Positions 3,754-59,383 of a stretch of 64,000 nt of DNA are shown piece after piece; the stretch's first letter is position 1; each line of letters begins with the position of its first letter. Source of the stretch: a virus (Duplodnaviria > Heunggongvirae > Uroviricota > Caudoviricetes); IMG/VR virus record IMGVR_UViG_3300045996_002451, positions 147,172-211,171 of that record; one strand, 5' to 3'. The translations under genes were made by a program, and so were the position numbers. Under the pieces are notes generated by a model. That model searched no databases. It was not told where the DNA came from and saw only the letters and a program-made list of their open reading frames with translations.

Positions 3754-3754
3754 T

Positions 3755-9875: not shown

Positions 9876-11363
9876 ATGCCTACACCTAACTCAGAACGCG
9901 CTATCTATCGGCCTCAACCCTCCGGGGGCGAGCGTTACTTGCCCGGTTGGCACATTGCTCGCACGGATCCGGACAGCCTGGTTTACCGCCTGGTACACCA
10001 ACTGGTCGATGAGTGTGTCCCGCTCCGAGAAGAGCAGGCGCGCGCGTATCAGATGAACTGGTTGACCACCGCGCCCGTGGATGAGCCGCGAACGCAGTGG
10101 ACGTGCGTCTATCCGTTTGACCCGCAAGATGAACTGACCGTGACGGTGACGACCGCCGCCGATCTCGAGATCGAGGTGCGTGCCGCGCTGAGCGATCACG
10201 ACTTTGTGCGGGCGACCGATCCGGTCTGGAAGCTGGACACCCCGCAAGGGCGCCTGGTTTTTCGTAACCTGGCCACGGTGGAAAAGGAGCTGACCTCCGT
10301 CACCACCAGCTACACCGTAACCGGAGAAGCTTCGGGACTGGTCGCTGACGCTAATCTATACTGGCAGGGACAGACGGATGATCCCTGGCAAGTCCTATCG
10401 GCAGACAGTTCCTTGCGGGACGGGGTGACCTTTACCTTGCCGGTCACCGGCGTCATCTCGGTGCGTTACCAGTCCCAGGCACGCTACGCTGACCTGGTCT
10501 CGGGCACGGTGCTCTTAGAGCGTCGCAGCAGCCGCACGGTGCCGTTGCCGCTTACCGTGGAGCCGCTCCTGAACCTCTTCGATGGCTGGGGGTCGATCCT
10601 CGGGATCCCCCGCCTGCCGGATGAGGACAACGTCGCGTACAAAGCACGGCTGCTCGCGGAAGCGGAAGCGCCGCCTAACTCCACGGAGACAGGGGTGATT
10701 CGGGGCATCGCCTCGCGTCTGGGGTTGCTTTCGCGCACCTACTGGAACGGGATCGACGAACTCGAGTTCTCTGAAGAGGAGGTCACCGCGGTCCACCTGG
10801 TCGGTGTGGACATGTTCTTCGGGGTCACCGAGCAGCTTACGCCGGAGCCGCGGGAAAGCGTCACCGAACCGGTAGACACCTACTACGCGTCCTACACGGA
10901 CTGGCGGGAAGGGTGGTACGTCTATGTCGACGGCGTGCCCGCACAGGGCGTGACCGTTTCGGGTAACGTCGTTACACTAGGGGAAGAGACCAGTGGGGTG
11001 GTGACCGCGGCCTACACCGTCGCGCGGTACCAGTTGGAGCGCGACGCGGAAGATTACATCCTCAGCGTGCAGCCAGGTCAAGGCCTGCCGCCCGGTAACT
11101 ACGTGGTCCTTTACTCCCGCCAGGTCCTGGTCCATGGGCTGGGTGCGGAGACCGTGCAGGATGCGCTGCTCCTGACCGCAGCCGGGCTGCCGAATGAACT
11201 CTTCCTAGAGCTGCACCGTACCCTGGCGAGTGGGAGTACCACGTCGCTGGGAAGGGCGGGTTGGGAAACTGCGTATTGGTTTGCTTCCCCGGAAGAGACG
11301 CCGGGGACTACTCAGGTGGCGTTGCCGTTTGACGCGCACCTGACATTGGGTGATGATGAGTAA
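9876..11363 (+). CDS. Tail fibre protein 2, a paralogue of fibre 1.
   Basis: It shares blocks with fibre 1: 'LNLFDGWGSILGIPRLPDEDNVAYKARLLA', 'REGWYVYVDGVP...VSGNVVTLG' and 'GRAGWETAYWFASPEE'. Confidence 0.5.
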   Translation: MPTPNSERAIYRPQPSGGERYLPGWHIARTDPDSLVYRLVHQLVDECVPLREEQARAYQMNWLTTAPVDEPRTQWTCVYPFDPQDELTVTVTTAADLEIEVRAALSDHDFVRATDPVWKLDTPQGRLVFRNLATVEKELTSVTTSYTVTGEASGLVADANLYWQGQTDDPWQVLSADSSLRDGVTFTLPVTGVISVRYQSQARYADLVSGTVLLERRSSRTVPLPLTVEPLLNLFDGWGSILGIPRLPDEDNVAYKARLLAEAEAPPNSTETGVIRGIASRLGLLSRTYWNGIDELEFSEEEVTAVHLVGVDMFFGVTEQLTPEPRESVTEPVDTYYASYTDWREGWYVYVDGVPAQGVTVSGNVVTLGEETSGVVTAAYTVARYQLERDAEDYILSVQPGQGLPPGNYVVLYSRQVLVHGLGAETVQDALLLTAAGLPNELFLELHRTLASGSTTSLGRAGWETAYWFASPEETPGTTQVALPFDAHLTLGDDE

Positions 11364-42972: not shown

Positions 42973-43191
42973 GGGGATCACGTCCCCTTTTCCACCGCTG
43001 CTCTCCCCTCAGGACCACCGCCATGTCCGACCAGAACGAAGTGATCTTTAGTGCCGACTTCAAAGGTCTCCCGCTCAAAAACAGCCAGTACGGCGGGCCG
43101 AAGCCGCCGAAAGGACCCAGTACCTCCAAAGGCTCCAAGCCGCCGAAAGGCAAAGGCTCCGGCAAGTCCGGCAAGAAGTAGGAGTACGGGG

Positions 43192-43557
43192 ATGCCACGC
43201 CAGCCCAAGCCGCCTCGACGCCGGACCGTTATCTACGGTCTCGTGGATCCACGCGATGGCTTGATCTACTACGTTGGCAAGACCACGAACCCGAGCCGTC
43301 GGGTTGAGGGTCACCTGAAGGAGACCGTCAACAAGAACCGGGTCGCGTGGATCAAGGATCTGGTAGCACACAAGTTGCTGCCGATCCTGATCATCCTGGA
43401 AACGGTCCCCAAGGACAAGACCTGGGAAGATACGGAAATCTATTGGATCGCCAAGGGAAGGGCGCTGGGATGGCCGCTGCTTAACGTCAGCGACGGCGGC
43501 AACGAACCGCCTCGCTACACCAACGTGCCTACCCGAGGAACACGCAGAGGATACTGA
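43192..43557 (+). CDS. GIY-YIG endonuclease, a free-standing homing-endonuclease-like gene.
   Basis: 'VIYGLVDPRDGLIYYVGKTTNPSRRVEGH' is the GIY-x10-YIG motif with a conserved R and H. ATG at 43192 with GGAG upstream. Preceded by a 52-aa Lys/Pro/Gly-rich ORF (43022-43180). Confidence 0.6.
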   Translation: MPRQPKPPRRRTVIYGLVDPRDGLIYYVGKTTNPSRRVEGHLKETVNKNRVAWIKDLVAHKLLPILIILETVPKDKTWEDTEIYWIAKGRALGWPLLNVSDGGNEPPRYTNVPTRGTRRGY

Positions 43558-43568
43558 TGAGCCCTCCT

Positions 43569-43582
43569 GTTACCCGTGTAAC
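43569..43582. promoter_or_regulatory. Motif A (GTTACCCGTGTAAC).
   Basis: Just after the GIY-YIG gene stop. Confidence 0.45.
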
Positions 43583-43767
43583 ACGTTCCCTGCACTGTAA
43601 GTTGTTGGGAGCACTGGGTAACCCGATGACCGCTTACGGAGGCGGCGTGCTCACCACGATCAGTTTGTTAGTGAACGAGAAGCTGCCGGAACTGGCAGTG
43701 CTTACCCATCTAGCCATGGTGGTTCTGGTGGTTGGAGTACTGTCGGGCTGGCGAGATTACGGAGAAG

Positions 43768-44004
43768 ATGATGGCAGGTAATAACGCGGTGCGCCGACCT
43801 TCAGTGATGCTGTGCAAGGCATGCAAGGCTGAAGCCGTTGTGGGCCAGGGGAACTTCCGCAAGGAAACCCGCATGGCATACCGAGAGATCGGAGACCCCA
43901 CGCAAAAGGAAAGCTATTCCCGCTCCCTGGCCGTTAGCCAGGAGGTGCTGGTGTGCATCCACTGCAACCACGTGCAGGAAGAACTCGGCTTCATTCGGAG
44001 CTAA
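43768..44004 (+). CDS. Small zinc-ribbon protein.
   Basis: 'CKAC ... CIHC' pairs. Confidence 0.35.
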   Translation: MMAGNNAVRRPSVMLCKACKAEAVVGQGNFRKETRMAYREIGDPTQKESYSRSLAVSQEVLVCIHCNHVQEELGFIRS

Positions 44005-44121
44005 GTAATGAACCTGGAAGAGCGCATCCTACTCGTGATCAGTCTGGTGCTGGTAGGAGCGCTCGCCCTTTTTTCCGCGTTGATTCAGTTGAGTCTGGTT
44101 AGTCGTTAACGGGGTAGAATA

Positions 44122-44409
44122 ATGAACAACCGAGCGTTGAACCGAAATGAGTGGGGCGTGCGAGTAGAGACCCAGATCGTCCGGGCCGGGGCACAGCACC
44201 GGGTGGAAGCGACCAAAGCACAGATCCAGAAATGGGATCCCGCGCTAGTCGGCAAGAGTGTCTTTAATGAGCAGCGACTGGTGGAAGCCCGAGAGCGCCT
44301 GCAGCGCGACCAACTGTACCTCTCGGTGCTACAAAGCCACGGGGCGCCGCACATCATCCTCTCGGTTGAAGACTGCGTCTACTTTGGTCTGCATGTGTTA
44401 GAGAGCTAG
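44122..44409 (+). CDS. Hypothetical protein.
   Basis: 95-aa ORF. Confidence 0.35.
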   Translation: MNNRALNRNEWGVRVETQIVRAGAQHRVEATKAQIQKWDPALVGKSVFNEQRLVEARERLQRDQLYLSVLQSHGAPHIILSVEDCVYFGLHVLES

Positions 44410-44415
44410 AACCTC

Positions 44416-45018
44416 GTGGCTAACAGCTTTGAGAACGAGATGAGCGAGAGCGCGCAGCATCTGGGCATCTGTTACCAGAAGCTGGCAATCCCCATGCGGC
44501 TCTGCCACATGACCAAGCGCTTGATCAAGCTAAAAACCAACCCTTACGACGCCTTTGCCATCCATGAAGGTCGGCACTACGCGCTGGAGTTGAAAAGCTT
44601 GGACGAGCACGGCAGCTTTCCACTGGTCAACATCGAACCTCATCAGATCGAAGGTCTCCAGTCCGCGGCGATCTCCGGGGCCAAAGCCTTCTTACTGGTT
44701 AACATGAGAAGGCAGAAGGGCAAGACAGCGAACCGCGCGTGGTCGCTTCCTATTGAGTACTGGGATGAACTCCTGGCTTTACTGGAAACGGCCAAGCGGA
44801 AGAGTATTCCCTACCGCTACTTTACGGAAGAGCTGCTCTTTACTGAGTTGCCTCGCCGCCGAGTAGAGAACGCGTTTGGTGCAGAGGAGCTGGTCTGGGA
44901 CCTCCGGGTTCCGCTGGGTATCGTAACTGAGCCGGTCAAGCTGCCTGCGTTAGATGATGAGCCTCCTTATGATCCGGAGAACCCTTGGGCGTTGCCTCCG
45001 GTTGAAGTACGCGTGTAG
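44416..45018 (+). CDS. Putative PD-(D/E)xK nuclease (VRR-NUC / RecU-like).
   Basis: 'YDAFAIHEGRHYALELKS' fits a D ... E-x-K catalytic core. Tentative. Confidence 0.3.
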   Translation: MANSFENEMSESAQHLGICYQKLAIPMRLCHMTKRLIKLKTNPYDAFAIHEGRHYALELKSLDEHGSFPLVNIEPHQIEGLQSAAISGAKAFLLVNMRRQKGKTANRAWSLPIEYWDELLALLETAKRKSIPYRYFTEELLFTELPRRRVENAFGAEELVWDLRVPLGIVTEPVKLPALDDEPPYDPENPWALPPVEVRV

Positions 45019-45024
45019 CACGCG

Positions 45025-45040
45025 TCATACATAGAGTCCG
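45025..45040. promoter_or_regulatory. Motif B variant (GTAGCACGCGTCATAC).
   Basis: Upstream of the GroES-like gene. Confidence 0.4.
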
Positions 45041-45061
45041 TATCCCGAGTTAAGAGAGTTT

Positions 45062-45604
45062 ATGAACACCCTGCTTTCCCAGATCCTTGAAAACAAGAAC
45101 CTCGCCCTGAAGACGATCGGCGCCAACCCGCAGCTTGTCCAGCCGCTCGGCAGCTACATCGTCGTGAAGCTGATCAAGGCGGACGAGTACACCCTGGGTG
45201 GGATCGCCCTGACCGCGCAGTCCATCGAGAAGAACCAGCCGCAGCTTGCGGAGGTGATCAGCGTGGGCCCGGGACAGCGCGGCATGACCGACGGCGTCGC
45301 GATCCCGGTCTGCACCAAGCCGGGCGATCTGGTGCTGGTCGTAAAGCACACCCCGTACGAGATCAAGCTGAACGGCGAAGTCTTCTGGGTGGCGTTTGAA
45401 GGCGACCTGCTGGGCGTCATCAACCAGGAAGAGCTGGCGGTGACCCTGGCCGTAGAGCAGGCCCGCCTGGAAGCGGAGCGGCTGGACCGAGAAGCCAAGC
45501 TCGCTGCCGAAGAGGCGACGAAGGGCAAACTGGTCGAGAAGCTGGATGATGGAGAGCTGCGCGAGAGCAAGGGCGGCATCCTGATCGCCACTGCGGGGGC
45601 CTAA
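45062..45604 (+). CDS. GroES / Cpn10-like co-chaperonin (T4 gp31-like) with a charged coiled-coil C-terminal extension.
   Basis: The pattern 'YIVVKLIKADEYTLGGIALTAQSIEKNQPQLAEVISVGPG ... KPGDLVLVVKHTPYEIKLNGEVFWVAFEGDLLGVI' parallels the GroES mobile-loop and roof-hairpin layout. Confidence 0.5.
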   Translation: MNTLLSQILENKNLALKTIGANPQLVQPLGSYIVVKLIKADEYTLGGIALTAQSIEKNQPQLAEVISVGPGQRGMTDGVAIPVCTKPGDLVLVVKHTPYEIKLNGEVFWVAFEGDLLGVINQEELAVTLAVEQARLEAERLDREAKLAAEEATKGKLVEKLDDGELRESKGGILIATAGA

Positions 45605-45609
45605 GCCCT

Positions 45610-45960
45610 ATGTCCCAGAAGCTTTCACCCCCTGCCTTGCGCGGGGGGTTGTACCCTTCGGCGCACATGCGGCGCTGCCCGGCCTTCCACTACTGCGCGC
45701 GCTGTCACATGTGCGCGAACTTCAACATCCATAATGAGATGTGTAATCGGTGTGAAGAACGGAAAGCGCCCAAGCGTTACTGCAAGTGTACGCCTGCAGA
45801 ACGCCACGCTCTGATCCAGGTGGAGAAGATCACGAACAAACCGCTCTGGGATCCAAACAACGCCGAGCGCGGCGAAGTGTTAATCCAGACGGACCACACC
45901 CCGATCAACCAGGACATGGTCCAGGCGATCAAAGAGATGAAGTCCGCGGGTCAGGAGTAG
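45610..45960 (+). CDS. Cys/His-rich small protein.
   Basis: 'RRCPAFHYCARCHMCANFNIHNEMCNRCEERKAPKRYCKC' is a multi-Cys metal-binding-like segment. Confidence 0.35.
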   Translation: MSQKLSPPALRGGLYPSAHMRRCPAFHYCARCHMCANFNIHNEMCNRCEERKAPKRYCKCTPAERHALIQVEKITNKPLWDPNNAERGEVLIQTDHTPINQDMVQAIKEMKSAGQE

Positions 45961-45962
45961 CG

Positions 45963-46136
45963 ATGTCGTACCTAGAGATTGTTCGTAAAGACGGCACCGT
46001 CCTCGGTACGATCGATGAGGTGAACCACCACGTTGAGGTGGGCGTGGACTGGGCTAACCAGCCGCATAAGACCGTTAAGCAGGCTAAAGCCAAGAAGGCT
46101 AAGGCCAAGAAAGAAGAGCAGATCGATGAGCGTTGA
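45963..46136 (+). CDS. Hypothetical small basic protein.
   Basis: 57 aa with a 'KAKKAKAKKEE' tail. ATG at 45963. Confidence 0.3.
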   Translation: MSYLEIVRKDGTVLGTIDEVNHHVEVGVDWANQPHKTVKQAKAKKAKAKKEEQIDER

Positions 46137-46614
46137 GAACACTGGCGTAGAAGGTACCGAGATCAACTTTGAGGTGATCGTGCTGCGCTTCCTGCAGGCG
46201 TGTCAGCAGATCCGGGAGATGGGCACGTACATTCATCACGTCCGCATCCATCCCGACCTGAAGCAAGGGTTTCAAGCAGAGTTGGGACGCGTGCCGGAGG
46301 AGGTCCTACCCTCCGCGATGATTGCCAAGATTCAGATCGAAGAAGATCCCTCTGAAAAAGAGATCCGGATCATCACGGGTAAGGACATCGAACGCATGTA
46401 CCTGGAGCGGCACTTCGGTCCGCGCGAGGAAGGCGGCACGGGAGTCCTGCCCAATCTGATGAACTACCTACAGAAGAACAAGATCCCCGTTACGGTAGAT
46501 CTCCCCTTCCTACGTACCCTCTTTCTTTTGGAGGCCGTGGAACGGATCGACAGTCGGGTAATCACCGCTTCTGCAGGAGCGCTTCCCAACCTCGCCGATT
46601 TGCGTCGGCGATAA
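46126..46614 (+). CDS. Hypothetical protein.
   Basis: ATG at 46126. 162 aa. Followed by a terminator. Confidence 0.35.
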   Translation: MSVENTGVEGTEINFEVIVLRFLQACQQIREMGTYIHHVRIHPDLKQGFQAELGRVPEEVLPSAMIAKIQIEEDPSEKEIRIITGKDIERMYLERHFGPREEGGTGVLPNLMNYLQKNKIPVTVDLPFLRTLFLLEAVERIDSRVITASAGALPNLADLRRR

Positions 46615-46626
46615 CCGACGGTCTTT

Positions 46627-46657
46627 AAGGTCACCTGGAAACGGGTGACCTTTTTTA
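46627..46657 (+). terminator. Rho-independent terminator upstream of the sigma factor gene.
   Basis: AAGGTCACC-tggaaacg-GGTGACCTT followed by TTTTTT. Confidence 0.6.
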
Positions 46658-46662
46658 ACGCT

Positions 46663-47289
46663 ATGGAACCTAAAAGCTGTGCCGATCAGTCCAGCGCTTT
46701 AACCGAGAGTATCGCGCGTTACCAAGCTGGAGACTCGCAGGCGGCTGCCGAGCTGCTCACGTCCTGCGAAGCTTATCTGAACCGCTGGTTCCGACTCCTG
46801 ATCCAGGGAACGTTCACCAAGAACGACACGGAGATCCGCCAGTTTCTAGGGCTGCTTAGCAGTGATCTGGAGCCCGCCCTGGCTGCCAAGAACCTGGCCC
46901 GCCAGTTGCGCTCCTATTCCTCAGCCGATCTACGGCAGGAGGTACGCGCGCTCTTTCTCCAGCTTGCTCTGGAACATGGTGAGATCTACGCGCACTTTCC
47001 GCACCAGCTCAAGGGACGCATCCACGTCCTCCTCGGCGATCCCCTCAACTATCAGGACGAGCTAGGGAACAGCACACCCTTCGGCGCACTGGACGAAGCT
47101 TGGGTACAGGGACAGTGTGGAAACGGGTTCTCGCAGCTTACAGAGCAGCAGAGACGTATTGTGCGCTGCTGCTTCTGGCACGCCTACCCGATTCCCCACA
47201 CGGCGCACATCTTAAAGCTCTCGGTGGAAGAGATCCAGCAAGAACTGGCCACTATCCGGAACGCGTTAAAAGACCTAAACCGACGTTAA
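46663..47289 (+). CDS. Sigma-70-family (ECF-like) sigma factor.
   Basis: Region-2-like 'SIARYQAGDSQAAAELL ... YLNRWFRLL' and region-4 HTH 'LTEQQRRIVRCCFWHAYPIPHTAHILKLSVEEIQQELATIRNALKDL'. The ATG at 46663 follows a terminator. Confidence 0.55.
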   Translation: MEPKSCADQSSALTESIARYQAGDSQAAAELLTSCEAYLNRWFRLLIQGTFTKNDTEIRQFLGLLSSDLEPALAAKNLARQLRSYSSADLRQEVRALFLQLALEHGEIYAHFPHQLKGRIHVLLGDPLNYQDELGNSTPFGALDEAWVQGQCGNGFSQLTEQQRRIVRCCFWHAYPIPHTAHILKLSVEEIQQELATIRNALKDLNRR

Positions 47290-47306
47290 ACAGCTTAAAG
47301 AAACTC

Positions 47307-47343
47307 AGCTAGTGGTGGCCCTAGGGCCACCACTAGCTTTTTG
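47307..47343 (+). terminator. Rho-independent terminator.
   Basis: A 32-bp perfect palindrome AGCTAGTGGTGGCCCTAGGGCCACCACTAGCT followed by TTTTT. Confidence 0.65.
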
Positions 47344-47356
47344 TTACACGGGTAAT
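47343..47356. promoter_or_regulatory. Motif A variant (GTTACACGGGTAAT).
   Basis: Immediately after the 47307 terminator, upstream of the nuclease gene. Confidence 0.4.
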
Positions 47357-47423
47357 TGCGTGAGTCAAGCGAGGGCATCTTCGCTACATTAAAGTAGATG
47401 TAGAGCGCTTGCACTCCCCCAAG

Positions 47424-47432
47424 GGGTAACAT
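47424..47432 (+). promoter_or_regulatory. Motif C (GGGTAACAT) overlapping the TTG at 47432.
   Basis: GGGGTAACATTGAG. Confidence 0.4.
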
Positions 47433-48604
47433 TGAGTAGTAAGCAGCACCACCGGAAACGAGGAATCAGTATGGGTGTACGACTCGCCAAACCAGTCCTG
47501 GACTGGGCAGCCACCGAAGACGTGGCCACCGCGCTTCATCTGGAGCGTGATGTCTCTCCGCGAGACAACAGCTACATCCGCCTTTCCGGGCTCTACCAGT
47601 GTAAGCGTCAGCTCGCGTACCGCGTTAACTGGTTCAAGGAAGGGCGTGAAGAGCTGCCGATGGGTGCGCAGACCCTGGGGATCTTTGACGTCGGTCACGC
47701 GATGCACTACCACCTACAGATGCGGCTGTCCAAGCACGGAACGCTGGGTTGGGTGGACGCAGATCCGGTGATCGCTGAAAACGCGGACGGGAAGAAGCGC
47801 CTGGACTGGGAAGGAAACTTCGAAGTCTCCCTGATCGACCATGAGTACCGGGTGCGAGGTACGTTGGACTGTCTGACGTATCCGCTGCTCCTGAAGACCG
47901 TGGAGCGCGATGGTCAGACGTTCGAGACGTACGAGGTTGTGCCAGAAGGTACGGAAGGTGCCAAACGGTACATCATCGACATCAAGACGTGTTCAGCACG
48001 CGACACGTGGAAGGTCAACAAGAAAACGGGGAACCTGGAACGTAAGCCTTCCGGTTTCGAAAAGCTGGAGGCGCCTAAGCCGGAGCACGTGACTCAGGCC
48101 ATGATGTATAGCTGGATGGTGACCCGTCCGAACTTCTCGACGGAGCGCGAACCCAAGCCCCTGGCCGTGATGCCAGACGTCATGATCCTGTACGTGGCGA
48201 AGGACGTACCACCTGATTACTACTCTCGCTATCCCGAGATGTACCCCGAGGACAAGCGCCTGCTCCACTCGCCGTACAAGATCTTCCGGGTAGCGGCAGA
48301 CATGGTGCGGGTGAACACCGCCCTGACCAAGGTGAACTCGGTCTGGTCAGACCTGGATAACAACCGTCTTCCGAGTCGTGATTATCAACACCGGGTGGAC
48401 TGGCCTGCGTATCCTTGCCTTGATTGTGGCTTCCGCAAGGAGTGCTACTCCGAAGAAGGTTTCTTCAAAGCGGATCCTGAAGACTACCCGCTGCGCGTCC
48501 TTTACCGACGTGAACAGCTTCTGGAGCAAATCGATGCCCGCAAAACCGCAGACGCTCAAGATGGTACGAACGGTGGCGGAGGTAGCAGTCTACCAATTGG
48601 GTAA
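47432..48604 (+). CDS. RecB-family / Cas4-like PD-(D/E)xK exonuclease with a C-terminal Cys cluster.
   Basis: 'GIFDVGHAMHYHLQ', 'IDHEYRVRGTLDCL', 'YIIDIKT' (D-x-K), the 'QAMMY' (QxxxY) motif, and C-terminal 'CLDCGFRKEC'. TTG at 47432 or ATG at 47472. Confidence 0.5.
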   Translation: MSSKQHHRKRGISMGVRLAKPVLDWAATEDVATALHLERDVSPRDNSYIRLSGLYQCKRQLAYRVNWFKEGREELPMGAQTLGIFDVGHAMHYHLQMRLSKHGTLGWVDADPVIAENADGKKRLDWEGNFEVSLIDHEYRVRGTLDCLTYPLLLKTVERDGQTFETYEVVPEGTEGAKRYIIDIKTCSARDTWKVNKKTGNLERKPSGFEKLEAPKPEHVTQAMMYSWMVTRPNFSTEREPKPLAVMPDVMILYVAKDVPPDYYSRYPEMYPEDKRLLHSPYKIFRVAADMVRVNTALTKVNSVWSDLDNNRLPSRDYQHRVDWPAYPCLDCGFRKECYSEEGFFKADPEDYPLRVLYRREQLLEQIDARKTADAQDGTNGGGGSSLPIG

Positions 48605-50803: not shown

Positions 50804-50835
50804 CAAAAAGAGGGAGGCTCAATTGAGCCTCCCTC
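50804..50835 (-). terminator. Rho-independent terminator on the - strand.
   Basis: GAGGGAGGCTC-aatt-GAGCCTCCCTC. The plus-strand AAAAA at 50805-50809 reads as a T-run on the - strand. Confidence 0.6.
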
Positions 50836-50859: not shown

Positions 50860-51717
50860 TTAGCGCAGTTGAATGTTGGTGAACGGGATCCCGGGAGTAC
50901 CGACCCGCGGCACTTCGCCGCCCGCCTTCTTCCACTTCTCGATCGCCAGTTTGCGCAGCTCCAGCTTTTTGATCTTGATCGCAGTGCTGCCGCTCTGGGA
51001 ACCCAGCAACCGGTTTTGTTCGGCTTGCTGCTGGGCCTTGATCAGGATGGTCTGGGCTTCCTGCTCGGCACGCTTCTGCTCGGCCTGCGCGTTACCCAGT
51101 TCTTGCCGGGCTTCGAGGCGTTCCTTGATACGAGCTTCGATCTCATTGGGGCGCCGCATGTCCTGGATGTACAGGTTGTCCAGGGTAAAGCCGGACTCAC
51201 TCATCGATGCACGCAAGGCGGACTGAGCCTGGTCGCCGAAGAGGGCCTTCTTGTTGGCCACGATCTCGGCGAAACTCATCTTGGTGGCGGCGTTGACCAT
51301 CGCTTCCTGGGTAAAAACCAGAAGGATCTCGTGGAACTTGCTCATGTCCGCGGTGCCGAAGGTCTCAAAGACGCGCACGGCGTTGGACTTATCCACGTGA
51401 AACGCGACAGTGGTGTCCACCTCGATCGGGACACCCTCCTGGGTGACCACCACGATGGCGTCCCCTTCGGCGTCCGACTCGTCCACCTTCTTCTGGGCGA
51501 AGCTAACGTTGATCGTCTTGGTGGGGAAGTCCTCTACCCGCTCCTGGTCCAGCGGGTTGACGCTGACCACGCTCGGCTCGAGCGGTTGGGAGTTAATCCC
51601 GGTGCGCCCGTTGTACTTGATCCCCACATGGGAGGGCGGGATCTGGTGACAGCCGGAGGTGAACCCCAGGACGATCAGGGCGCCGAGCCCGCAGAGCACG
51701 TTTTTCCAGTTCTTCAT
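50860..51717 (-). CDS. SPFH / Band-7 (prohibitin / HflC-like) protein with a signal peptide and possible lipobox.
   Basis: N-terminal 'LCGLGALIVLGFTSGC'. The SPFH core is followed by a long Ala/Gln/Glu-rich coiled coil 'EARIKERLEARQELGNAQAEQKRAEQEAQ'. Confidence 0.6.
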   Translation of the reverse strand: MKNWKNVLCGLGALIVLGFTSGCHQIPPSHVGIKYNGRTGINSQPLEPSVVSVNPLDQERVEDFPTKTINVSFAQKKVDESDAEGDAIVVVTQEGVPIEVDTTVAFHVDKSNAVRVFETFGTADMSKFHEILLVFTQEAMVNAATKMSFAEIVANKKALFGDQAQSALRASMSESGFTLDNLYIQDMRRPNEIEARIKERLEARQELGNAQAEQKRAEQEAQTILIKAQQQAEQNRLLGSQSGSTAIKIKKLELRKLAIEKWKKAGGEVPRVGTPGIPFTNIQLR

Positions 51718-52640
51718 TAGTTTCCTCCCACGGCCACTGCGGCCTCGCCGACGACTACCGAGACGCCCTTACCACTGGGCACATCCGGGAAGCGCCCGTT
51801 CCAGGCGTCGATCGCCGCTTCGTCAATTTCCAAGCTCATCATTTCCAGCGAAGCGCTGTGGGTCTTCGTGGCGGTCATCTCCCGGGCCTTGGCCTGGGCG
51901 TTGGCGGTAATGAGCGCCGTCTTGCGCTCGATCTCCGCCTGCTCCTTGTGCGTCTTGGCGATCTCCGTACCGGTCATGATGTTGACCCGCTGGTTGATCT
52001 TGGTCTGCACGTTAGCATCCGGGTAGGGACGCAGGAAGAAGGCACGGTAGATGGTGATCCCCTTGCTCTCGAGTTTCTTCTTGAGGTTCAGGGTAAGCTT
52101 CTTGCCCGCGTCTTCCAGGGCCGGGGCGATTAACGTCTGCGCATCATACTCCGGACCGATGTCGTTCGCGGCATCCTGCAGCGCCCGGCGAATGTGCTGG
52201 CTCTGGATCGTCCGGATATCCGCTTTGCCGAAGTTGGCAAAGACGGTACCGAGCTTATCCGGATCGATGTGGTAAAGCACGCCGACATCAAAGAGAGTGG
52301 ACGCGGTGTCCGAGGTGGTGATGCGCACCGCGTCGGCCTGCTTCAGATCGCCGACCCGAGCATCCTGGGTGTAGAGGGCGAGCTGCGGCTTCGTGGGGAA
52401 CGTGTACAACTCATACATCGGCGCCACGTAGTGACGTCCGGGCTTGAAGATCTTCACGGTACCGTCCGGGTTGATCACCAGACCGTTCTTGGTGTTTGCG
52501 CCTGCACGGGCGCTGTACATCACCCCGACTTCACCGGCGTCTACCCGGGTCCCGGTGAAGAACCACACGCCCCAGACCACCACAATGACCGCCAAGGCGG
52601 CGATCAGGGCACATCCTACGTTGCTTGATTTACTGGACAT
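51717..52640 (-). CDS. SPFH / Band-7 (HflK-like) membrane protein.
   Basis: N-terminal TM 'CALIAALAVIVVVWGVWFF'. SPFH-type core with a C-terminal coiled coil 'EQAEIERKTALITANAQAKARE'. Confidence 0.6.
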   Translation of the reverse strand: MSSKSSNVGCALIAALAVIVVVWGVWFFTGTRVDAGEVGVMYSARAGANTKNGLVINPDGTVKIFKPGRHYVAPMYELYTFPTKPQLALYTQDARVGDLKQADAVRITTSDTASTLFDVGVLYHIDPDKLGTVFANFGKADIRTIQSQHIRRALQDAANDIGPEYDAQTLIAPALEDAGKKLTLNLKKKLESKGITIYRAFFLRPYPDANVQTKINQRVNIMTGTEIAKTHKEQAEIERKTALITANAQAKAREMTATKTHSASLEMMSLEIDEAAIDAWNGRFPDVPSGKGVSVVVGEAAVAVGGN

Positions 52641-52861
52641 TAGTTTCCTTTTCCGAACCGAGCTTGAAGGTCCTGCTCGATTTCTTGGTGTGCGCGCTGT
52701 TTCAACTCGGCGTCCAGCGCCGCGCGCTGACGTTTTTCCTCATCCTCTTGGGAGAGGCGCTGCCAGTCCTGCTTGATCCGTCTCCACACGCGCGCCGCGG
52801 TGAAGCCGAGCACTAAGCCCAGGATCAGCAGTAAAAACATGTTCAGCCAGATTGCTGTCAT
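52640..52861 (-). CDS. Small single-TM protein co-encoded with the SPFH pair, an NfeD-like accessory candidate.
   Basis: 'IWLNMFLLLILGLVLGF' TM segment then a charged coiled coil. ATGT/ATGA overlaps on both sides. Confidence 0.4.
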   Translation of the reverse strand: MTAIWLNMFLLLILGLVLGFTAARVWRRIKQDWQRLSQEDEEKRQRAALDAELKQRAHQEIEQDLQARFGKGN

Positions 52862-54510
52862 TCTTGGTCCTTGTGATTTCTCACCGCGTCCAGGAACGCG
52901 TTGAACAGGGGGTGCGCTGCCTCGAACTGACTCTTGTACTCGGGGTGGTACTGGACACCGACAAAGAAAGGATGCACGGATGGATCCAGCTCAACCGCAT
53001 CGTACGTATCTCGACCATTGTCCTTGGCCATCGCAGAGATGGTCAAGCCTCCCTCGATCAGTTTTGGCGCATACTCCGGGTTCAGTTGGTACCGGTGCCG
53101 GTAGCGCTCTTGCACGACTTCCCCTTCGATGTAGATCTCCTGAAGGCGCGTCCCGGACCCAAAGGCCACCGAGACGTTTCCCTTACGTAAGGCACCCCGA
53201 ATATCGGTGGAGGAGAAGCGTTGGATAACCACCGGATGCGGCGTCTTCGGATCGATCTCCGTACTGTTTGCCCCGGCCAGGGCCAGCACGTTTTGCGCGT
53301 ACTCGACCACCGCCATCTGGAACCCATAGCAGAGTCCCAGGTAAGGCAGCTTCTTTTCTCGCGCGTAACGGATCGCACGGATCTTACCGTCGGCGCCGCG
53401 GCTGCCCCACCCCTGCGGGATGATCACCCCGTCGCAGTACTTCATGGTGGTCTCGAAGCTTTCAGGATCTTGTTCGATCCCTTCCGCATCGATCCATTCT
53501 ACCAGGACCCGCACGCCGGTATGCGTCTCAGAGTGCTTCAGCGCCTCAATGACGGACACGTAGCTATCGGGAAGCTGGTAGTCGCCGGAACCGAGGTACT
53601 TGGCCACGATGCCGATGCGAACGGCGGCGCCCTCTCCGTTCAAGAGGAGATTGACCCGCTTCTTCCAGTTCGCTAACTTGGGCCGGGCAATGACCGTAAC
53701 CCCCAGGCGCTTCAGTAGTTTCTGCGCGAACTTCTGCTCTTCGAACAAGAGCGGCACCTGGTAGATGGTCTTCACGTCCGGGGCCAGGATGATCTCATCC
53801 TCACGCAGGTGCGTGTTGGCTGCGATCTTCTCCTTGCGCACCCCGTCTACCACGTACTTAGCGGCGGAACGAAGCACCAGGAAATCCGGCTGGATCCCCG
53901 CATCATAAAGCTGGCGAATGGAGAGCTGTACCGGTTTGCTCTTCATCTCGCCCAGGCTCTCGATGTACGGCAGGTACGCCACGTGAACGTGCGCCACCCG
54001 TCCGGGATGCTTCTTGGTCATCATCCGCGCAGCTTCCAGGAAGACCTGGATCTGGTACTCACCCACCGTGCCGCCAAACTCGCAGATGACGAAGTCGGCT
54101 TCATGGTGTTTCCCGCAGGCTTCCACGCGGCGGATGACCGCCTCGGGCACGTGGGGTACCATCTCCAAGGTCTTCCCGCCGAAGGCGTGGGAGCGCTCCT
54201 CATCCATGATCTCGCGAAGCACGCTGCCCATCGTGAGGTAGTTGTGGGCCGTCGTGTCTTCACCGATGAAGCGCTCGTAGTGTCCCAGGTCTTGGTCGGT
54301 CTCGAGCCCGTCCGAAGTGACAAACACTTCGCCGTGCTCCACCGGGTTCATCGTGCCTGCATCGCCATTCAAGTACGCGTCGGCTTTCATGCAAGCCACG
54401 GAATAACCGCGCGTCCGAAGTAGCGTGCCAAGGGAAGCAGCCACGATCCCCTTACCCAGACCGGAGATCACGCCTCCGGAAATGAAAATGTAACGTGTGT
54501 GGTTAGCCAT
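52858..54510 (-). CDS. pyrG: CTP synthase.
   Basis: N-terminal 'TRYIFISGGVISGLGKGI' is the canonical PyrG start. The GATase domain has 'LGLCYGFQMAVVEYA' and 'YHPEY'. 550 aa. Confidence 0.85.
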   Translation of the reverse strand: MANHTRYIFISGGVISGLGKGIVAASLGTLLRTRGYSVACMKADAYLNGDAGTMNPVEHGEVFVTSDGLETDQDLGHYERFIGEDTTAHNYLTMGSVLREIMDEERSHAFGGKTLEMVPHVPEAVIRRVEACGKHHEADFVICEFGGTVGEYQIQVFLEAARMMTKKHPGRVAHVHVAYLPYIESLGEMKSKPVQLSIRQLYDAGIQPDFLVLRSAAKYVVDGVRKEKIAANTHLREDEIILAPDVKTIYQVPLLFEEQKFAQKLLKRLGVTVIARPKLANWKKRVNLLLNGEGAAVRIGIVAKYLGSGDYQLPDSYVSVIEALKHSETHTGVRVLVEWIDAEGIEQDPESFETTMKYCDGVIIPQGWGSRGADGKIRAIRYAREKKLPYLGLCYGFQMAVVEYAQNVLALAGANSTEIDPKTPHPVVIQRFSSTDIRGALRKGNVSVAFGSGTRLQEIYIEGEVVQERYRHRYQLNPEYAPKLIEGGLTISAMAKDNGRDTYDAVELDPSVHPFFVGVQYHPEYKSQFEAAHPLFNAFLDAVRNHKDQE

Positions 54511-55298
54511 CAGTCCTCAAAGTCGTAAAGACGCACCAGTACTTCCGGTTCCGGTTCCGCTGCAGGGGGTTCTGGGTTGGGTGAGAACGCTCGAAGTTGG
54601 GCCGCTTCGGTGTAGTAGTTTCCGTTTCGGTTCTTAAGGCGTGCTTTTCTTAACGTTTCCAAACCGCTAAAGAAAATACGCAGCATGATTTGTTCCGGAG
54701 GAACGTTAGCCCAACGGCTGATCGAGGTCACCCGTTCCTGTACGGTGCGCCACGGCATATTGGGGTTTACGGCGTCCTGGAGTTCGTCGAGTACGCTATC
54801 GATCCGGTCTTCCCGCGTCTCCTCTCGGCGACTAAAGAGGGGAATAGAGGGGTCGACAGGGTTAAGGCCTTGGATGTAGTTCTCATAAAACCGCACCTGA
54901 TTAGCGCGCTCAACCTCCTGCATGCTGATACGTTTCTGCCTAACATCCGAGAAGTCGATGGCGGGTGGTGTGGGCTTGGCAGCGTTCTTCCAGTACTGAC
55001 CTAAATTTGGGAAACTGATTGCTTCTATCTTTTCCAACGAAGCTAATAAGCGATTCGCTTCGCCTCCGCCCGCGATACTCTCCGCGCGTGCAGCACCCGT
55101 CTCTCCAGACACTCCAGTTGGATCTGGAAGGGGTGTTGAAACTGGGTCTTGCGACACAACGCCTTGAGCTTCAGCTTCGCTTCCGTCAGGCTGGAAAGTG
55201 GACTTTCGACGAGCTTTTTCACGTAAACGGGGAAGCTTCCCTTTTCCACCTGACTTAGTTGGTTTGCCGCTACCAGTTCCATCTTTTGGATCGTCCAT
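54510..55298 (-). CDS. Hypothetical protein ending in 'VRLYDFED'. Start uncertain.
   Basis: C-terminal motif shared with the family. The listed start overlaps the 55043-55540 ORF. An alternative in-frame ATG lies at 54923. Confidence 0.35.
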   Translation of the reverse strand: MDDPKDGTGSGKPTKSGGKGKLPRLREKARRKSTFQPDGSEAEAQGVVSQDPVSTPLPDPTGVSGETGAARAESIAGGGEANRLLASLEKIEAISFPNLGQYWKNAAKPTPPAIDFSDVRQKRISMQEVERANQVRFYENYIQGLNPVDPSIPLFSRREETREDRIDSVLDELQDAVNPNMPWRTVQERVTSISRWANVPPEQIMLRIFFSGLETLRKARLKNRNGNYYTEAAQLRAFSPNPEPPAAEPEPEVLVRLYDFED

Positions 55299-55615: not shown

Positions 55616-56014
55616 CTACGATGGGATCGCGTCTTCCGGATCGTCAAAATCATACAGGCGTACTGGTGCTTGTTCTGGCTCCGGGGGCGTTACTGCTCGC
55701 TTCTGATTCTTAGGCATCCAACCTTTGTACGGCTTAGGCTCCGGAGGACTGATTTTGATAGGAATGGCTGCCATCTGAGCGATCAACTGGTCTTGCAGTT
55801 TTGTGTAATCTTTTTTCGAAGCACGCGCGGATCCCTGCTGAACTGTGCGTTCAGCTCTAAGCTTTTCCGCGACGCTTTGATCGTAGACCAGTTCAGTGCC
55901 TTCCCAATTAAGGGGTACTAAACAGATGCGGCAGTAAGAAGGTTGCTCAGCTATTTTCAAGCGGGTGTAACAAACCGGGCAACCCGTCGTCTTAGAGATG
56001 TCTAGGCTTGGCAT
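55616..56014 (-). CDS. N-terminal zinc-ribbon protein with C-terminal 'VRLYDFDDPEDAIPS'.
   Basis: 'CPVC ... CRIC' plus the shared terminal motif. Confidence 0.45.
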   Translation of the reverse strand: MPSLDISKTTGCPVCYTRLKIAEQPSYCRICLVPLNWEGTELVYDQSVAEKLRAERTVQQGSARASKKDYTKLQDQLIAQMAAIPIKISPPEPKPYKGWMPKNQKRAVTPPEPEQAPVRLYDFDDPEDAIPS

Positions 56015-56838
56015 GGTACGCTAAAGAACTCCCGCTGAGGCAGCATCACCGCGGTCAGTAGACCGCCGTAGCAACTTCCGGTATCGATCCCAATCTTTTC
56101 CGGACGGTTCAAAGGCTTCCAGCTATCTTTCATCCCAGGTTGCCAGATACCACTCTGCACCTCCGTGGACTGCGGCGTGTGTCCGAAGATCACCGGCTTG
56201 TCCAGACGATGCTTGGTGTCGTAGATCCATTCGTCCCGGATCCAGAGCTTCTGAAAACGGCTGCACTGGCCGGGACGCTTCCCCGGCTGGAAACCGGCGT
56301 GCACGTAGTAACCGTGCTCGTCCTCATAGTCCAGCTTCAGGGAAGCAAACCAGTTCATCAAATCTTGGCCCAGCAGGGAGGTGATCCCTTCCGCGGCCAC
56401 GCCGAGAAATACCTTTTCCAGCAGTTTCAAGGTGACTGCGCGGCGTCCACCTGCGACATCGATCAGGCGCGCAAACTCCACCGGACCCAGGAAGCTTTTC
56501 ATCGCTTCGACGCCGCCGTTGCTTTCCCAGAGACCCGCATCGTAGAGTCTATGTCCACCCTGTTCCACCCGCAGGTGATCCAGCAGCATGTCCTCATGGT
56601 TGCCGATTAAGGTCACCACGGGTCCGGGCCAATAAGCCTGGCACTCTTTGGCCACTCCCCATTCCTGCAGCTCCTGCACGATGCGGATCACACCCCGACT
56701 GTCGGGGCCCCGGTCGATGTAGTCGCCTACAAAGACCAGGGTATCCCCTTCTTCAGCCAGGGGCTCGATCTGCGCCAGCAACTGCTGCAAAGGTTCGGCA
56801 AAGCCGTGTACATCACCGATCGCAAAGGTTTTACTCAT
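56002..56838 (-). CDS. Ser/Thr protein phosphatase (PPP-family metallophosphoesterase, lambda-PPase / ApaH-like).
   Basis: 'GDVHG', 'GDYIDRG' and 'GNHE' metallophosphatase motifs. Confidence 0.75.
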   Translation of the reverse strand: MSKTFAIGDVHGFAEPLQQLLAQIEPLAEEGDTLVFVGDYIDRGPDSRGVIRIVQELQEWGVAKECQAYWPGPVVTLIGNHEDMLLDHLRVEQGGHRLYDAGLWESNGGVEAMKSFLGPVEFARLIDVAGGRRAVTLKLLEKVFLGVAAEGITSLLGQDLMNWFASLKLDYEDEHGYYVHAGFQPGKRPGQCSRFQKLWIRDEWIYDTKHRLDKPVIFGHTPQSTEVQSGIWQPGMKDSWKPLNRPEKIGIDTGSCYGGLLTAVMLPQREFFSVPCQA

Positions 56839-56871: not shown

Positions 56872-57804
56872 CTACGTCACGATCTCCAGGACTTCCATCG
56901 CCTGACGCAGCAAGTTTAACCGAGCGTCTCGGGTCATACTGCGCCACTGCTGCTTACTCATCCCGGTACTGCCGCCACTCACCAGCTCCAGTACGGCATC
57001 CAGGTTGCCGACAGGCACCACCGCGGTGGTGCGCGTAGCATCGGGCTGGATGTGGTGACCCCGCTTCACCGCCTCGGAAGGGCGCACGCGGACCGAGGTG
57101 ATTTTCGTGCCACTGCGGCGAGGAGGCGCAGCGGTGAGCGGCGTGCGCGTATTGGTACGCATCACCCCGTTCTTGATGTTGCGCGCCAACATCTGTACGT
57201 AGCTGTACACCGCGTTAGCGACTTTGCCGATCTCCACCTGTTCGGTGTAGGTGGGCATGCGCTTGCGGGGATCGATCCCCCGGGCCAGCAACTCCTTGAC
57301 GATCGTATGGGCCTTGGTGCCCTCTTGAAAGTTCTGGAGCAGGTCCTGGGACGGATCAGCGGGAGGAGCCGTTTCGATCACCTCAGTCGGAGAGGTCGTC
57401 ATGATTTGTCGAGGTCCTACTTGGTAGACCGGAGGCGCTTTGGCGTCCTGCGCGCTGACGTACTCGAAGAACGCCTCCAGCACGCGCAGCTCGTTCAAAG
57501 CCCTTCGGACCAGAATACATGGGATATCCAGCTTATCAGCCGCCTTACGGGTATTGACGGAGTTGGTGTGGCTGATGCAGTCGAGCATGATCATGGCAAG
57601 ATCTGCCCCGGACAGCTCCTGCTCCAGCTTTCGCAGGGGCAAGCGCCTTTTCGTGTCCACCCACACCAACTCCGCCGCTAACAGTTCGGAGAGTGCTTCA
57701 AGCCGTTTTTCCTCTCGCCTGCCACCAATCAGGAAGATCCGTTTGCCCTGGGTAAGCGACAGGACACGTTCCATAAATGGTTCGGTGGAAGAGGGGGTTT
57801 GCAT
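56872..57804 (-). CDS. Hypothetical protein with a possible N-terminal Rossmann / SLOG-like domain and a low-complexity C-terminus.
   Basis: The spacing in 'RIFLIGGRREEK ... LAMIMLDCISHTNS ... DIPCILV' resembles DUF2325/SLOG. An ATG at 57804 has GGAG upstream. Confidence 0.35.
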   Translation of the reverse strand: MQTPSSTEPFMERVLSLTQGKRIFLIGGRREEKRLEALSELLAAELVWVDTKRRLPLRKLEQELSGADLAMIMLDCISHTNSVNTRKAADKLDIPCILVRRALNELRVLEAFFEYVSAQDAKAPPVYQVGPRQIMTTSPTEVIETAPPADPSQDLLQNFQEGTKAHTIVKELLARGIDPRKRMPTYTEQVEIGKVANAVYSYVQMLARNIKNGVMRTNTRTPLTAAPPRRSGTKITSVRVRPSEAVKRGHHIQPDATRTTAVVPVGNLDAVLELVSGGSTGMSKQQWRSMTRDARLNLLRQAMEVLEIVT

Positions 57805-57808
57805 GCGG

Positions 57809-59383
57809 TTACTCCGGCTCGGCACTGCCTTCGAGGATGCGCGCCTGGGTCTTAGGATACAGGGCGTACCACTTCTTAAGCAAGCGTCGATAGTCGTTGG
57901 CGTATTTGTACAGCGCCCCTACGCCCGTGCGCAGCTCGCACTCGTAGAGGAACTTGTCTGCTGTGGTGCCGTGCTCGTAGCTACTCTCCGCGCCCAACAC
58001 CAACCAGTAGACATAGGTAGAGTACCCTTGCGTCAGCAGGTTCAACGCCGTACGCGTCATCGTCCGCCCGATCTCCGCAAGCGCTTCTAGCTGTTTGCGT
58101 TCCTCCTGGGCCCAGCTCGGCAACTCATCCTCGGCCCAGTAGAAACCGACCGGGATCAGCGGCGCGAACTTGTACCCCGTACGGTGCCGGTTCATGTCCC
58201 GCAGACAAGCGAAGTCTACGGCTCCGATCGAAAAGCGTACAAAGGTACGCCGCAGCCAGGCCCCTACCCAGGCATACCGGTTCTCGTGGAACTCCAGGTC
58301 CTGGTAGAACTCCCCGTCGAAGAAGTTGCGTTCTTCTTGGTGCCCGTAGAACGTGTGCTCTGTTTCAGGACACCAGACGGCCAGGTGAACCGGCGAAGTC
58401 GCACTGGAACGGGTGATCGGAAGCGTCTCATTCAGGAAGGTCTGCCCGATCCCGGTATAGGAAGTCTGCCGCGCGGCCTTGAACTCCTGCTCGAAGCCTT
58501 GGGTCCAGTACGCCTTGGCCACGGCGTGCTTGACCAGTCGCGGGGTAACCAGCTCCAGTTCTTCCCGCAGCAGCTTGCCTAGCGCCTGGCCTTCGGACAG
58601 CGGTTGAGACAGCAGCTTCTGGATCAACTCGGTCCAGCCGCGGGCGTTCATGACCAGCATCACGTTGGTCTGTACGGCAGCCGGGATGAAGCAGCGTGCC
58701 CGGTCGAAGGCGTAGTTGCGCTTCAGCCGTTCCAGCTTGAGCCGGGCTTTTTCGTCGGTCTTGGCTTCTTCGATGAGTGAACTGGGGATCTTGGCGACGG
58801 TGGGATCCTTTTCGAAGATTCCGGACCAGAGCGCGTACGCCTGATTGTAGGCGTCAAACGCGAGCGCGGTCTGCTGCGTCCATTCAGGGGCGTCCACTAC
58901 GCCTAGCGCCTCTGCCGAAGGTAAGCCTTCCGCGGAGAACTTGCAGTAGCGCGTGCTCGTCTCCTGTCCGGAGGCCGTCGGCACCTGACTCCAGATCCAG
59001 TAGACCAGGTAGACCGAGACGTTGTCGAGGAACATCGCGACTGGCGCCATGTCCGCAATCGAGGCATGGCCGTAGTCCACCATCTTGAAGATGGAGTCGA
59101 CCCCTTTGTCCGGGTTGCCGGGGCGATAATTGTTCGCTACGGTGTGGAAGCGTTCGTAATCGTCATCCCATTCCGCACGGTGGCTTTCTGCCACGAGCGT
59201 AAGGAACTTCTCGAGGGTTTCCTGCTTGTTACCAAGATCAATCTTTTCGAGGATCGCCTCCAAGCCCTCTCCATTGCGACTGTAGCGCGCGCCGGTGGCA
59301 GCTAGTTCTTCGGCGGTCAGGGCAACCTTCCCCGCGGCCAGCGCGGCTTCAGTGGGCTTTAGGGCGACGTATGTAACTTTCAT
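57809..59383 (-). CDS. Tandem-domain flavin-dependent thymidylate synthase (ThyX)-like protein.
   Basis: 'ARCFIPAAVQTNVMLVMNARGWTELI' matches the ThyX AR..LP...T...N.R motif. The first half has 'ETSTRY' without RHR. The second half has 'NRHRTGYKF'. 524 aa is about twice ThyX length. Confidence 0.45.
   Translation of the reverse strand: MKVTYVALKPTEAALAAGKVALTAEELAATGARYSRNGEGLEAILEKIDLGNKQETLEKFLTLVAESHRAEWDDDYERFHTVANNYRPGNPDKGVDSIFKMVDYGHASIADMAPVAMFLDNVSVYLVYWIWSQVPTASGQETSTRYCKFSAEGLPSAEALGVVDAPEWTQQTALAFDAYNQAYALWSGIFEKDPTVAKIPSSLIEEAKTDEKARLKLERLKRNYAFDRARCFIPAAVQTNVMLVMNARGWTELIQKLLSQPLSEGQALGKLLREELELVTPRLVKHAVAKAYWTQGFEQEFKAARQTSYTGIGQTFLNETLPITRSSATSPVHLAVWCPETEHTFYGHQEERNFFDGEFYQDLEFHENRYAWVGAWLRRTFVRFSIGAVDFACLRDMNRHRTGYKFAPLIPVGFYWAEDELPSWAQEERKQLEALAEIGRTMTRTALNLLTQGYSTYVYWLVLGAESSYEHGTTADKFLYECELRTGVGALYKYANDYRRLLKKWYALYPKTQARILEGSAEPE

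Follow-up and report, generated by a model that had tools for sequence, protein, structure and literature searches.

Prohibitin, the PHB1/PHB2 complex of the mitochondrial inner membrane (PDB 8RRH, 9UNL, 9O9Z), and the HflK/HflC-FtsH assembly of Escherichia coli (PDB 7WI3, 7VHQ, 9CZ2) each contain two paralogous SPFH (Band-7) proteins. A different arrangement is seen in SPFH-NfeD operons such as QmcA-YbbJ (PDB 8Z5G), YqiK-YqiJ and FloA/FloT with NfeD, where an SPFH gene is co-transcribed with the gene of a small membrane protein. Phages also encode SPFH proteins, as noted in the literature since 2006 (PMC1524935), among them N4 gp20, Kayvirus MbpS, AR9 gp180 and phi1026b gp48, which belong to PHROG 200. 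Here we analyze a three-gene module in a 64-kb stretch of phage DNA (positions 147,172 to 211,171 of IMG/VR record IMGVR_UViG_3300045996_002451; the whole stretch is called the window below), which encodes a small membrane protein and two SPFH proteins, A and B. We read the module as a host-derived, self-sufficient, prohibitin-like cage complex captured from an Armatimonadota-type operon, and give this reading a probability of about 0.5.

The initial annotation placed two adjacent SPFH proteins with different anchors at this locus, and profile scoring confirms them; all three ORFs lie exactly where it put them. SPFH-B (51717-52640, minus strand) is a 307-aa open reading frame (ORF) and the second gene in transcription of the module, and SPFH-A (50860-51717, minus strand) is a 285-aa ORF and the last. 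Against Pfam Band_7 (PF01145), A scores 87.6 bits and B 54.1 bits, with a cutoff of 23.6, and both match the PHROG 200 profile (‘lipoprotein’) over about 270-280 of its 379 positions (E 4.4e-44 for A, 9.8e-40 for B). The two are paralogues of each other at 22% identity (E 5e-15), and no third SPFH gene occurs within the 64-kb window. The anchors are also as first described, a signal peptide with a possible lipobox in one protein and an N-terminal transmembrane (TM) segment in the other. The hydrophobic signal peptide of A ends in FTSG-C23, which satisfies a PROSITE-like lipobox rule, and Cys23 is invariant across 15 A-type sequences; the anchor of B is an N-terminal TM helix only, without a lipobox. 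The C-terminus of A carries the motif AIEKW..G..P..G.PGIPFTN. In AlphaFold2 models, B (mean pLDDT, the predicted local distance difference test, 87.5) consists of a TM helix at residues 4-29, an SPFH domain at 30-206, a 70-residue helix at 209-279 and a flexible tail. The model of A (mean pLDDT 82.3), whose underlying alignment drew mostly on B-type sequences because the homologue search listed only B-types, shows a signal helix, an SPFH domain at 23-188, helices at 191-240 and 245-264, and a tail. Of the long C-terminal coiled coils proposed earlier, the long helices are therefore present in the models, while their pairing into coiled coils is something we infer.

Comparison with solved structures places both proteins nearest to prohibitin. 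Foldseek searches of the PDB return probability 1.0 for all solved cage-forming SPFH proteins over about 260-300 aligned columns, namely prohibitin, erlin1/2, HflK/C, stomatin, flotillin, QmcA and the major vault protein. A finds its top fold matches in the human prohibitin complex, with PHB1 (E 8e-15) and PHB2 (E 1e-14), and B reaches its highest TM-score with PHB1 (0.61/0.68). When family profiles are compared with solved structures, PHB1 is matched at E 1.3e-11 by the B family and 3e-7 by the A family, whereas stomatin reaches about 1e-3 and HflK a marginal 0.008. Judged by profile and modelled fold, A and B are closer to prohibitins than to other SPFH subfamilies, and prohibitin is the best solved match on both counts. 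As in prohibitin, there are two paralogues of comparable length (272 and 299 aa in prohibitin; 285 and 307 aa here), with N-terminal anchors, an SPFH domain followed by a long helix, and the bulk of the protein predicted to be non-cytoplasmic (in prohibitin it lies in the intermembrane space, equivalent to the periplasm). The differences are a low identity of about 12-20%, the lipid anchor of A in place of a TM helix, the gene for a small bitopic partner, and the bacterial or phage setting; in addition, a heteromeric ring is here only proposed, from homology and the pairing of the genes.

The pair was initially likened to HflK-HflC, and one alternative is that it is a true HflK/HflC-type modulator that cages host FtsH and tunes the proteolysis of phage or host substrates in the manner of lambda CII. 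As an analogy to a heteromeric cage the comparison is reasonable. Like HflK and HflC, A and B are adjacent, co-transcribed paralogues whose SPFH domains are predicted to face the periplasm, HflK/C-FtsH structures are among their full-length fold matches (probability 1.0), and the Joint Genome Institute (JGI) annotation names both large proteins ‘regulator of protease activity HflC’. Membership in HflK/HflC, however, is not supported: A scores 16.2 bits against the hflC equivalog (TIGR01932), which has a cutoff of 134.4, B has no match to it, and neither protein matches the hflK equivalog (TIGR01933). The HflK profile is only marginally matched, prohibitin giving a much better match, and A and B are shorter than HflK and HflC. 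The double TM anchoring of HflK/C is compatible with the flank charges of B (given below), but A, which is exported, bears a lipobox and is a lipoprotein rather than TM-anchored. Neither hflX nor ftsH is found nearby, and a motif scan (Walker A plus HEXGH) detected no FtsH-like gene in the window or within about 5 kb at about 90 related loci. The absence of FtsH is not decisive, because E. coli hflKC is also unlinked to ftsH. The failure of the equivalog models together with the better prohibitin matches leads us to treat A and B as prohibitin-type SPFH proteins and not as HflK/HflC orthologues, and we consider an HflK/HflC-type modulator unlikely.

Membrane topology can be predicted from the charges that flank the TM segments. 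In the B family the net charge is +2.83 on the N-terminal flank and +0.51 on the C-terminal flank (85/102 sequences), and B is therefore predicted to be a type II protein with its N-terminus inside and its SPFH domain outside. With B oriented in this way and A exported by its signal peptide, both SPFH domains are predicted to be periplasmic, outside the cytoplasm as in HflK/C and, topologically, in prohibitin. The same topology disfavors the proposal of a membrane microdomain for replication or assembly, since A would be an exported lipoprotein, B a type II protein, and both SPFH domains would face away from the cytoplasm.

The initial annotation missed the source of the module, which is a cellular operon of Armatimonadota. 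In an exhaustive HMMER search with B, about 15 representative clusters formed a tight clade (33-41% identity, E 6e-30 to 2e-58), beneath which lies a long tail of relatives at about 25% identity. Related loci were fetched with a 5-sequence alignment of the B family, as a 13-sequence alignment was too diverse for metagenome and genome scans; they lie on one IMG/VR contig of 101.5 kb, about 28 contigs from metagenomes and 24 from genomes. Armatimonadota is the label on 22 of the 24 genome contigs (Chthonomonadales, Fimbriimonadales and unclassified; taxonomy checked), and the loci of this phylum include a complete 4.86-Mb chromosome and contigs of 0.3-2.3 Mb. At every locus with enough sequence (about 45), the B-type gene is directly followed by an A-type lipoprotein SPFH gene, usually through an ATGA overlap (TAATG in the window). 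The B-type gene is preceded by a gene for a 69-112-aa protein with an N-terminal TM segment, a basic ‘RPxxxR’-like stretch and an E/R/K/Q-rich tail. The flanking genes are Fmt, Def, PrmC, an AI-2E transporter and DUF520 in one Armatimonadota genome, and RuvA, a class-II aminoacyl-tRNA synthetase and an alpha-amylase in the complete chromosome, while another cellular locus has thiamine-biosynthesis and Ada genes nearby. Since the flanks vary by lineage, the triad behaves as a self-contained unit. In total, about 25 Armatimonadota genomes carry the three overlapping genes in the order seen in the window, surrounded by housekeeping genes. The possibility that the Armatimonadota copies are prophage genes was rejected on the basis of the fmt/def/prmC and ruvA/aminoacyl-tRNA synthetase flanks. 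The same triad was also seen in two metagenome-assembled genomes labelled Actinomycetota and ‘uncultured archaeon’ (SYKE01000135.1 and CAWHLK010000037.1, respectively), which are probably mis-binned because the triad is otherwise found only in Armatimonadota.

Close relatives of the window genes themselves are few. Single-protein scans of IMG/VR gave no relative of B and, for A, only a match to a C-terminal fragment, and a word-indexed homologue search returned only the query proteins and one fragment of 67% identity. Looking up contigs by the exact sequence of B gave no record. The only close relatives are L009 and P0002, both on contigs shorter than 2 kb. L009 (882-1756 of Ga0196964_10050405) holds a fragment of B at 70-71% identity with a 69-aa small protein upstream, and P0002 holds a fragment of A at 63-67% identity to that of the window. 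These short contigs indicate that the phage lineage is present in other samples but barely sampled.

The first gene of the conserved module is a 73-aa ORF (52640-52861, minus strand). It had been described as an overlapping single-TM gene that follows the SPFH pair; the gene exists and does overlap, but it ‘follows’ only in plus-strand coordinates, because the genes lie on the minus strand, and in transcription it precedes the pair. The protein has a single TM segment (about residues 4-22), a basic RVWRRIK stretch and then an E/R/K/Q-rich helical tail, of which 59% is D, E, K, R or Q. Although it matches no Pfam family at cutoff, a hidden Markov model (HMM) of the small proteins scores it at 33.2 bits, a value reached by none of 1000 segment-preserving shuffles (mean 3.1, maximum 24.0). 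The HMM rests on 36 proteins taken from related loci (almost all of them cellular, one from a second viral contig, L008), and L009 was held out. On these scores, the small protein of the window is homologous to those of the cellular loci beyond shared composition. In the family as a whole the net charge is -0.27 on the N-terminal flank of the TM segment and +2.51 on the C-terminal flank (35/37 sequences), which predicts an N-out/C-in orientation with the charged tail in the cytoplasm. Contact with the SPFH pair is then predicted to be possible only via the TM segment of the small protein.

The module shares with SPFH-NfeD operons the co-transcription of an SPFH gene with a gene for a small membrane protein, and both A and B match the fold of QmcA over its full length. 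The analogy with these operons, drawn in the initial annotation, has nevertheless to be abandoned. NfeD (PF01957) gave no match at E<=0.1 for the 73-aa protein or its neighbors, and the partner is a bitopic protein with a charged helical tail only and no OB fold. In addition, SPFH domains of the QmcA type lie on the cytoplasmic side, in contrast to the outward orientation predicted for A and B.

The small protein also bears on the possibility of a lysis-timing device, as it has a weak PHROG match to an Rz-like spanin (E 0.0014). Under this explanation the small protein would be holin- or antiholin-like, or B and A would act as a two-component spanin that connects inner and outer membrane, and the SPFH pair would regulate membrane disruption. 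B (type II, with a long helix) and A (a lipoprotein without Asp at +2) superficially resemble an i-spanin and an o-spanin, and the Kayvirus MbpV/MbpS genes lie directly after holin and endolysin genes, with MbpV said to resemble holins (PMC7150955). However, the tail of the small protein is predicted to be cytoplasmic, which is the opposite of an i-spanin, and A and B are modelled as full SPFH folds, unlike any spanin. The module lies among nucleotide-metabolism genes with no endolysin-like gene within about 5 kb, and its cellular orthologues are found among housekeeping genes and not in prophages. A role in lysis timing is therefore very doubtful.

The three genes are transcribed together with the gene upstream of them, in the order pyrG, 73-aa gene, B, A and terminator, with junctions of ATGA after pyrG and TAATG at each of the next two. 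The pyrG gene (52858-54510, minus strand), which lies outside the conserved module, encodes a full-length CTP synthase (593.5 bits versus a 308-bit cutoff; NCBIfam PRK05380), and it is translationally coupled to the small gene, the ATGA overlap joining its stop codon with the ATG of the latter. Purine-rich, Shine-Dalgarno-like stretches (AGGA, AAGGA, GGGAGGA) stand 5′ of every start codon. An intrinsic terminator (50810-50835, minus strand) closes the operon: its hairpin, GAGGGAGGCTCAATTGAGCCTCCCTC followed by TTTTT, begins about 25 nt past the stop codon of A, has 11 pairs of which 8 are G-C, and is the top-ranked terminator-like site of an 11-kb scan. We consider the genes to be one transcription unit because of the stop/start overlaps and the terminator. 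An unannotated 262-aa ORF (54510-55298) overlaps the start of pyrG by the same kind of junction. The gene 5′ of the module differs between loci, being pyrG in the window, a NUDIX gene in the second viral contig (L008/L098) and variable among cellular loci.

In a neighbor-joining tree, A-types and B-types split cleanly into two congruent subtrees, the pattern expected of a long-standing, co-evolving heteropair. The A and B copies of the window each form a long branch that is sister to all cellular copies. Mean identity to the cellular copies is 37% for B, versus 51% among cellular copies, and 33% for A, versus 57%. In the second viral contig, where independent gene calls confirm a triad of 83, 300 and 278 aa, B is nested inside the cellular clade at up to 54% identity, and the 21 kb around the triad has nothing else in common with the window (tblastx). 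By sequence comparison, the module of the window is a diverged phage copy of a chromosomal operon of Armatimonadota, and parsimony favors transfer from host to phage, probably on more than one occasion. The origin of the operon further suggests an Armatimonadota host for the phage.

Another explanation is that these are passenger genes, taken from the host without an adaptive role for the phage, and the rarity of the module among viral contigs (one IMG/VR locus besides the window, plus the short L009 and P0002) speaks in its favor. The state of the genes suggests otherwise. None of the three ORFs is interrupted, and the translational coupling, Shine-Dalgarno sites and terminator are all preserved. 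The ratio of nonsynonymous to synonymous substitution rates (dN/dS) is 0.20 for B when compared with its nearest relative L009 (a 1.7-kb contig, 70% amino-acid identity), and both the GC content and the GC content at third codon positions resemble the rest of the phage. In addition, the module occurs independently in a second viral contig that appears to be unrelated. From these data the phage copy looks to be maintained under purifying selection, and we regard passenger genes as highly improbable.

Among cultured phages, members of PHROG 200 share with A and B an N-terminal anchor and a C-terminal KW.G.LP motif. They differ in carrying a single SPFH gene, and their identity to A and B is about 21-27%. 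A tblastn search of INPHARED with B matched 466 records at 466 places (one each), including Kayvirus, Enterococcus, N4-like, Burkholderia and jumbo phages, and the same search with A matched 43 records, again at one place each; many phage and giant-virus SPFH models are also found in BFVD. The tandem SPFH heteropair is, by these searches, unusual among sequenced phages. In all eight cultured lineages inspected, the SPFH gene adjoins, and usually overlaps, a gene for a small membrane protein of 49-102 aa with one or two TM segments. The partner is upstream in seven (N4 gp19, phi1026b gp49, RpAliso_137, Kayvirus MbpV, AR9 gp179, and ORFs of Mx1 and Pseudomonas phage 5400) and downstream in Enterococcus phage EF1TV. 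These SPFH and partner genes lie at 2733-3768 of locus L002, 2651-3768 of L003, 2760-3873 of L004, 2112-3214 of L005/L101, 2314-3256 of L006, 2286-3373 of L007, 1690-2777 of L103 and 1905-2911 of L102. The partners, mostly with two TM segments, score at most 10 bits against the small-protein HMM of the window, which is no detectable homology, and the architecture alone is common to them. In Enterococcus phage vB_EfaH_EF1TV (L102, 1-4388), the SPFH gene lies between nrdE/F and thymidylate synthase, a nucleotide-metabolism neighborhood of the same kind as that of the window (pyrG, ThyX-like).

Two further explanations concern conflict with other phages or with host defence. The first, also listed in the initial annotation, is superinfection exclusion or an entry block, in which a periplasm-facing lattice together with the small protein would hinder the injection of DNA by later phages. 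The SPFH domains are predicted to face the compartment crossed by incoming DNA, related single SPFH genes occur in temperate and lytic phages alike, and the gp19/gp20 pair of N4 adjoins a gene annotated as superinfection exclusion. That annotation, however, was made by similarity only. None of the three proteins of the module matches any defence family of PADLOC-DB at E<=0.01, and the orthology of the module to a chromosomal operon among housekeeping genes suggests a cell-physiological role, so that we find exclusion quite unlikely. The second is counter-defence, with the cage stabilizing the inner membrane or sequestering host factors against abortive-infection effectors that depolarize or perforate membranes. 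This would fit the general roles of SPFH proteins in membrane stress combined with the phage context, and the retention of an SPFH gene with a small membrane protein by several unrelated phage lineages suggests a general benefit during infection. The PADLOC-DB result and the lack of any such link in the literature searched count against it, and we judge it very unlikely. For phage SPFH proteins more generally, the literature on tested function, including superinfection exclusion, defence and MbpS, holds annotations and speculation only (PMC7150955 among others).

We therefore return to the prohibitin-like cage complex. In this model, A and B would most likely assemble into a hetero-oligomeric SPFH ring or cage at the periplasmic surface of the cytoplasmic membrane, B being held by its N-terminal TM helix and A by its lipid anchor, and the two subunits would alternate as do PHB1/PHB2 or HflK/HflC. 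The term ‘cage’ is used on grounds of homology, because solved full-length relatives form rings (of 11-26 copies per complex, or of heterodimers, by PDB chain counts), and the invariable, co-evolving A/B pairing adds indirect support. The third, bitopic protein would be located within or at the patch of membrane that the ring encloses, from where its charged helical tail would extend into the cytoplasm. Because all three parts are carried, the phage would assemble the whole complex itself, independently of that of the host, and poisoning of the host complex with a single subunit is argued against for the same reason. The module would be transcribed with nucleotide-metabolism genes (pyrG, ThyX-like) as part of a metabolic or takeover program. 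Its likely purpose is to control or preserve the protein quality control and integrity of the inner membrane during a long jumbo-phage infection. An FtsH-type membrane protease would be the obvious candidate client, and modulation of FtsH is, by analogy, a natural hypothesis.

Several observations weigh against this model. Among A-types the residue after the lipidated Cys is never Asp, and in E. coli a lipoprotein without Asp at +2 is sorted to the outer membrane. Under that rule A would be an outer-membrane protein and a cage on a single membrane would be broken; the rule is that of E. coli and may not hold in Armatimonadota. The binding of A to B and the formation of a ring are proposed from homology and gene pairing, with structural models of single chains only, and the motif scan of the window and about 90 loci gave no link of the module to FtsH. 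Identity between phage and cellular copies is only 33-37%, and the phage copies branch outside the cellular clade, so that direction and age of the transfer are judged by parsimony; the host assignment is drawn from this operon alone. Finally, the function of phage SPFH proteins is called unclear in the literature (PMC7760394, PMC13239085, PMC10269572).

A bolder interpretation, which we put forward as tentative and rather unlikely, is that the triad is a previously undescribed bacterial prohibitin-type complex with an obligate membrane-spanning third subunit that couples the periplasmic cage to a cytoplasmic partner, captured by phages at least twice. More broadly still, SPFH proteins paired with small membrane proteins (in N4, phage K, AR9 and Burkholderia, Ruegeria, Myxococcus, Pseudomonas and Enterococcus phages) would represent one widespread phage system that takes control of the host cytoplasmic membrane via proteostasis, exclusion or lysis timing.

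The remainder of the window is phage-like, with a baseplate wedge gene and several virion structural PHROGs, and the source contig is 211 kb long (JGI). Further genes encode glycosyltransferases and DnaB-like, dCMP deaminase, Cas4-like and ThyX-like proteins. The 64-kb window contains no tRNA genes, and megablast of the region against INPHARED gave no match, so that no cultured phage there is close at the DNA level. On the plus strand, 45062-45604 encodes a 180-aa protein with a Cpn10/GroES domain (51.8 bits), a candidate phage co-chaperonin that exceeds the usual length of GroES. This gene falls within 43051-48604 (plus strand), a run of DNA-transaction genes with a GIY-YIG nuclease, a RecU-like resolvase and a Cas4-like exonuclease, in which another protein has a weak match to sigma-70 region 4 (22.1 bits, below the 24.1-bit cutoff). 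At 56872-59383 on the minus strand, an unusually long 524-aa ThyX/Thy1-domain protein overlaps a 317-aa DUF2325 protein, and a NinI-like Ser/Thr phosphatase (56002-56838) follows these genes. Two glycosyltransferase-like genes (3784-4974 and 11350-14100, plus strand), one of them of 916 aa, lie inside the baseplate and virion-structural block.

SPFH genes are found in hundreds of phage genomes and in giant viruses, and papers up to 2026 call their function unclear. What is new here is a phage with the complete heteromeric pair and its partner, an argument for a self-sufficient complex and against a single interfering subunit, as well as a clear cellular source, a phylum-wide and apparently undescribed operon of Armatimonadota. 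The origin of the operon provides a host hypothesis for an uncultured jumbo phage, and the recurring arrangement of a small membrane protein with an SPFH protein lends itself to tests in phages that are easy to handle, for example N4 and phage K. A prohibitin-type cage in bacteria that includes a transmembrane adaptor, if the module is indeed one, would have implications for client selection by SPFH cages.

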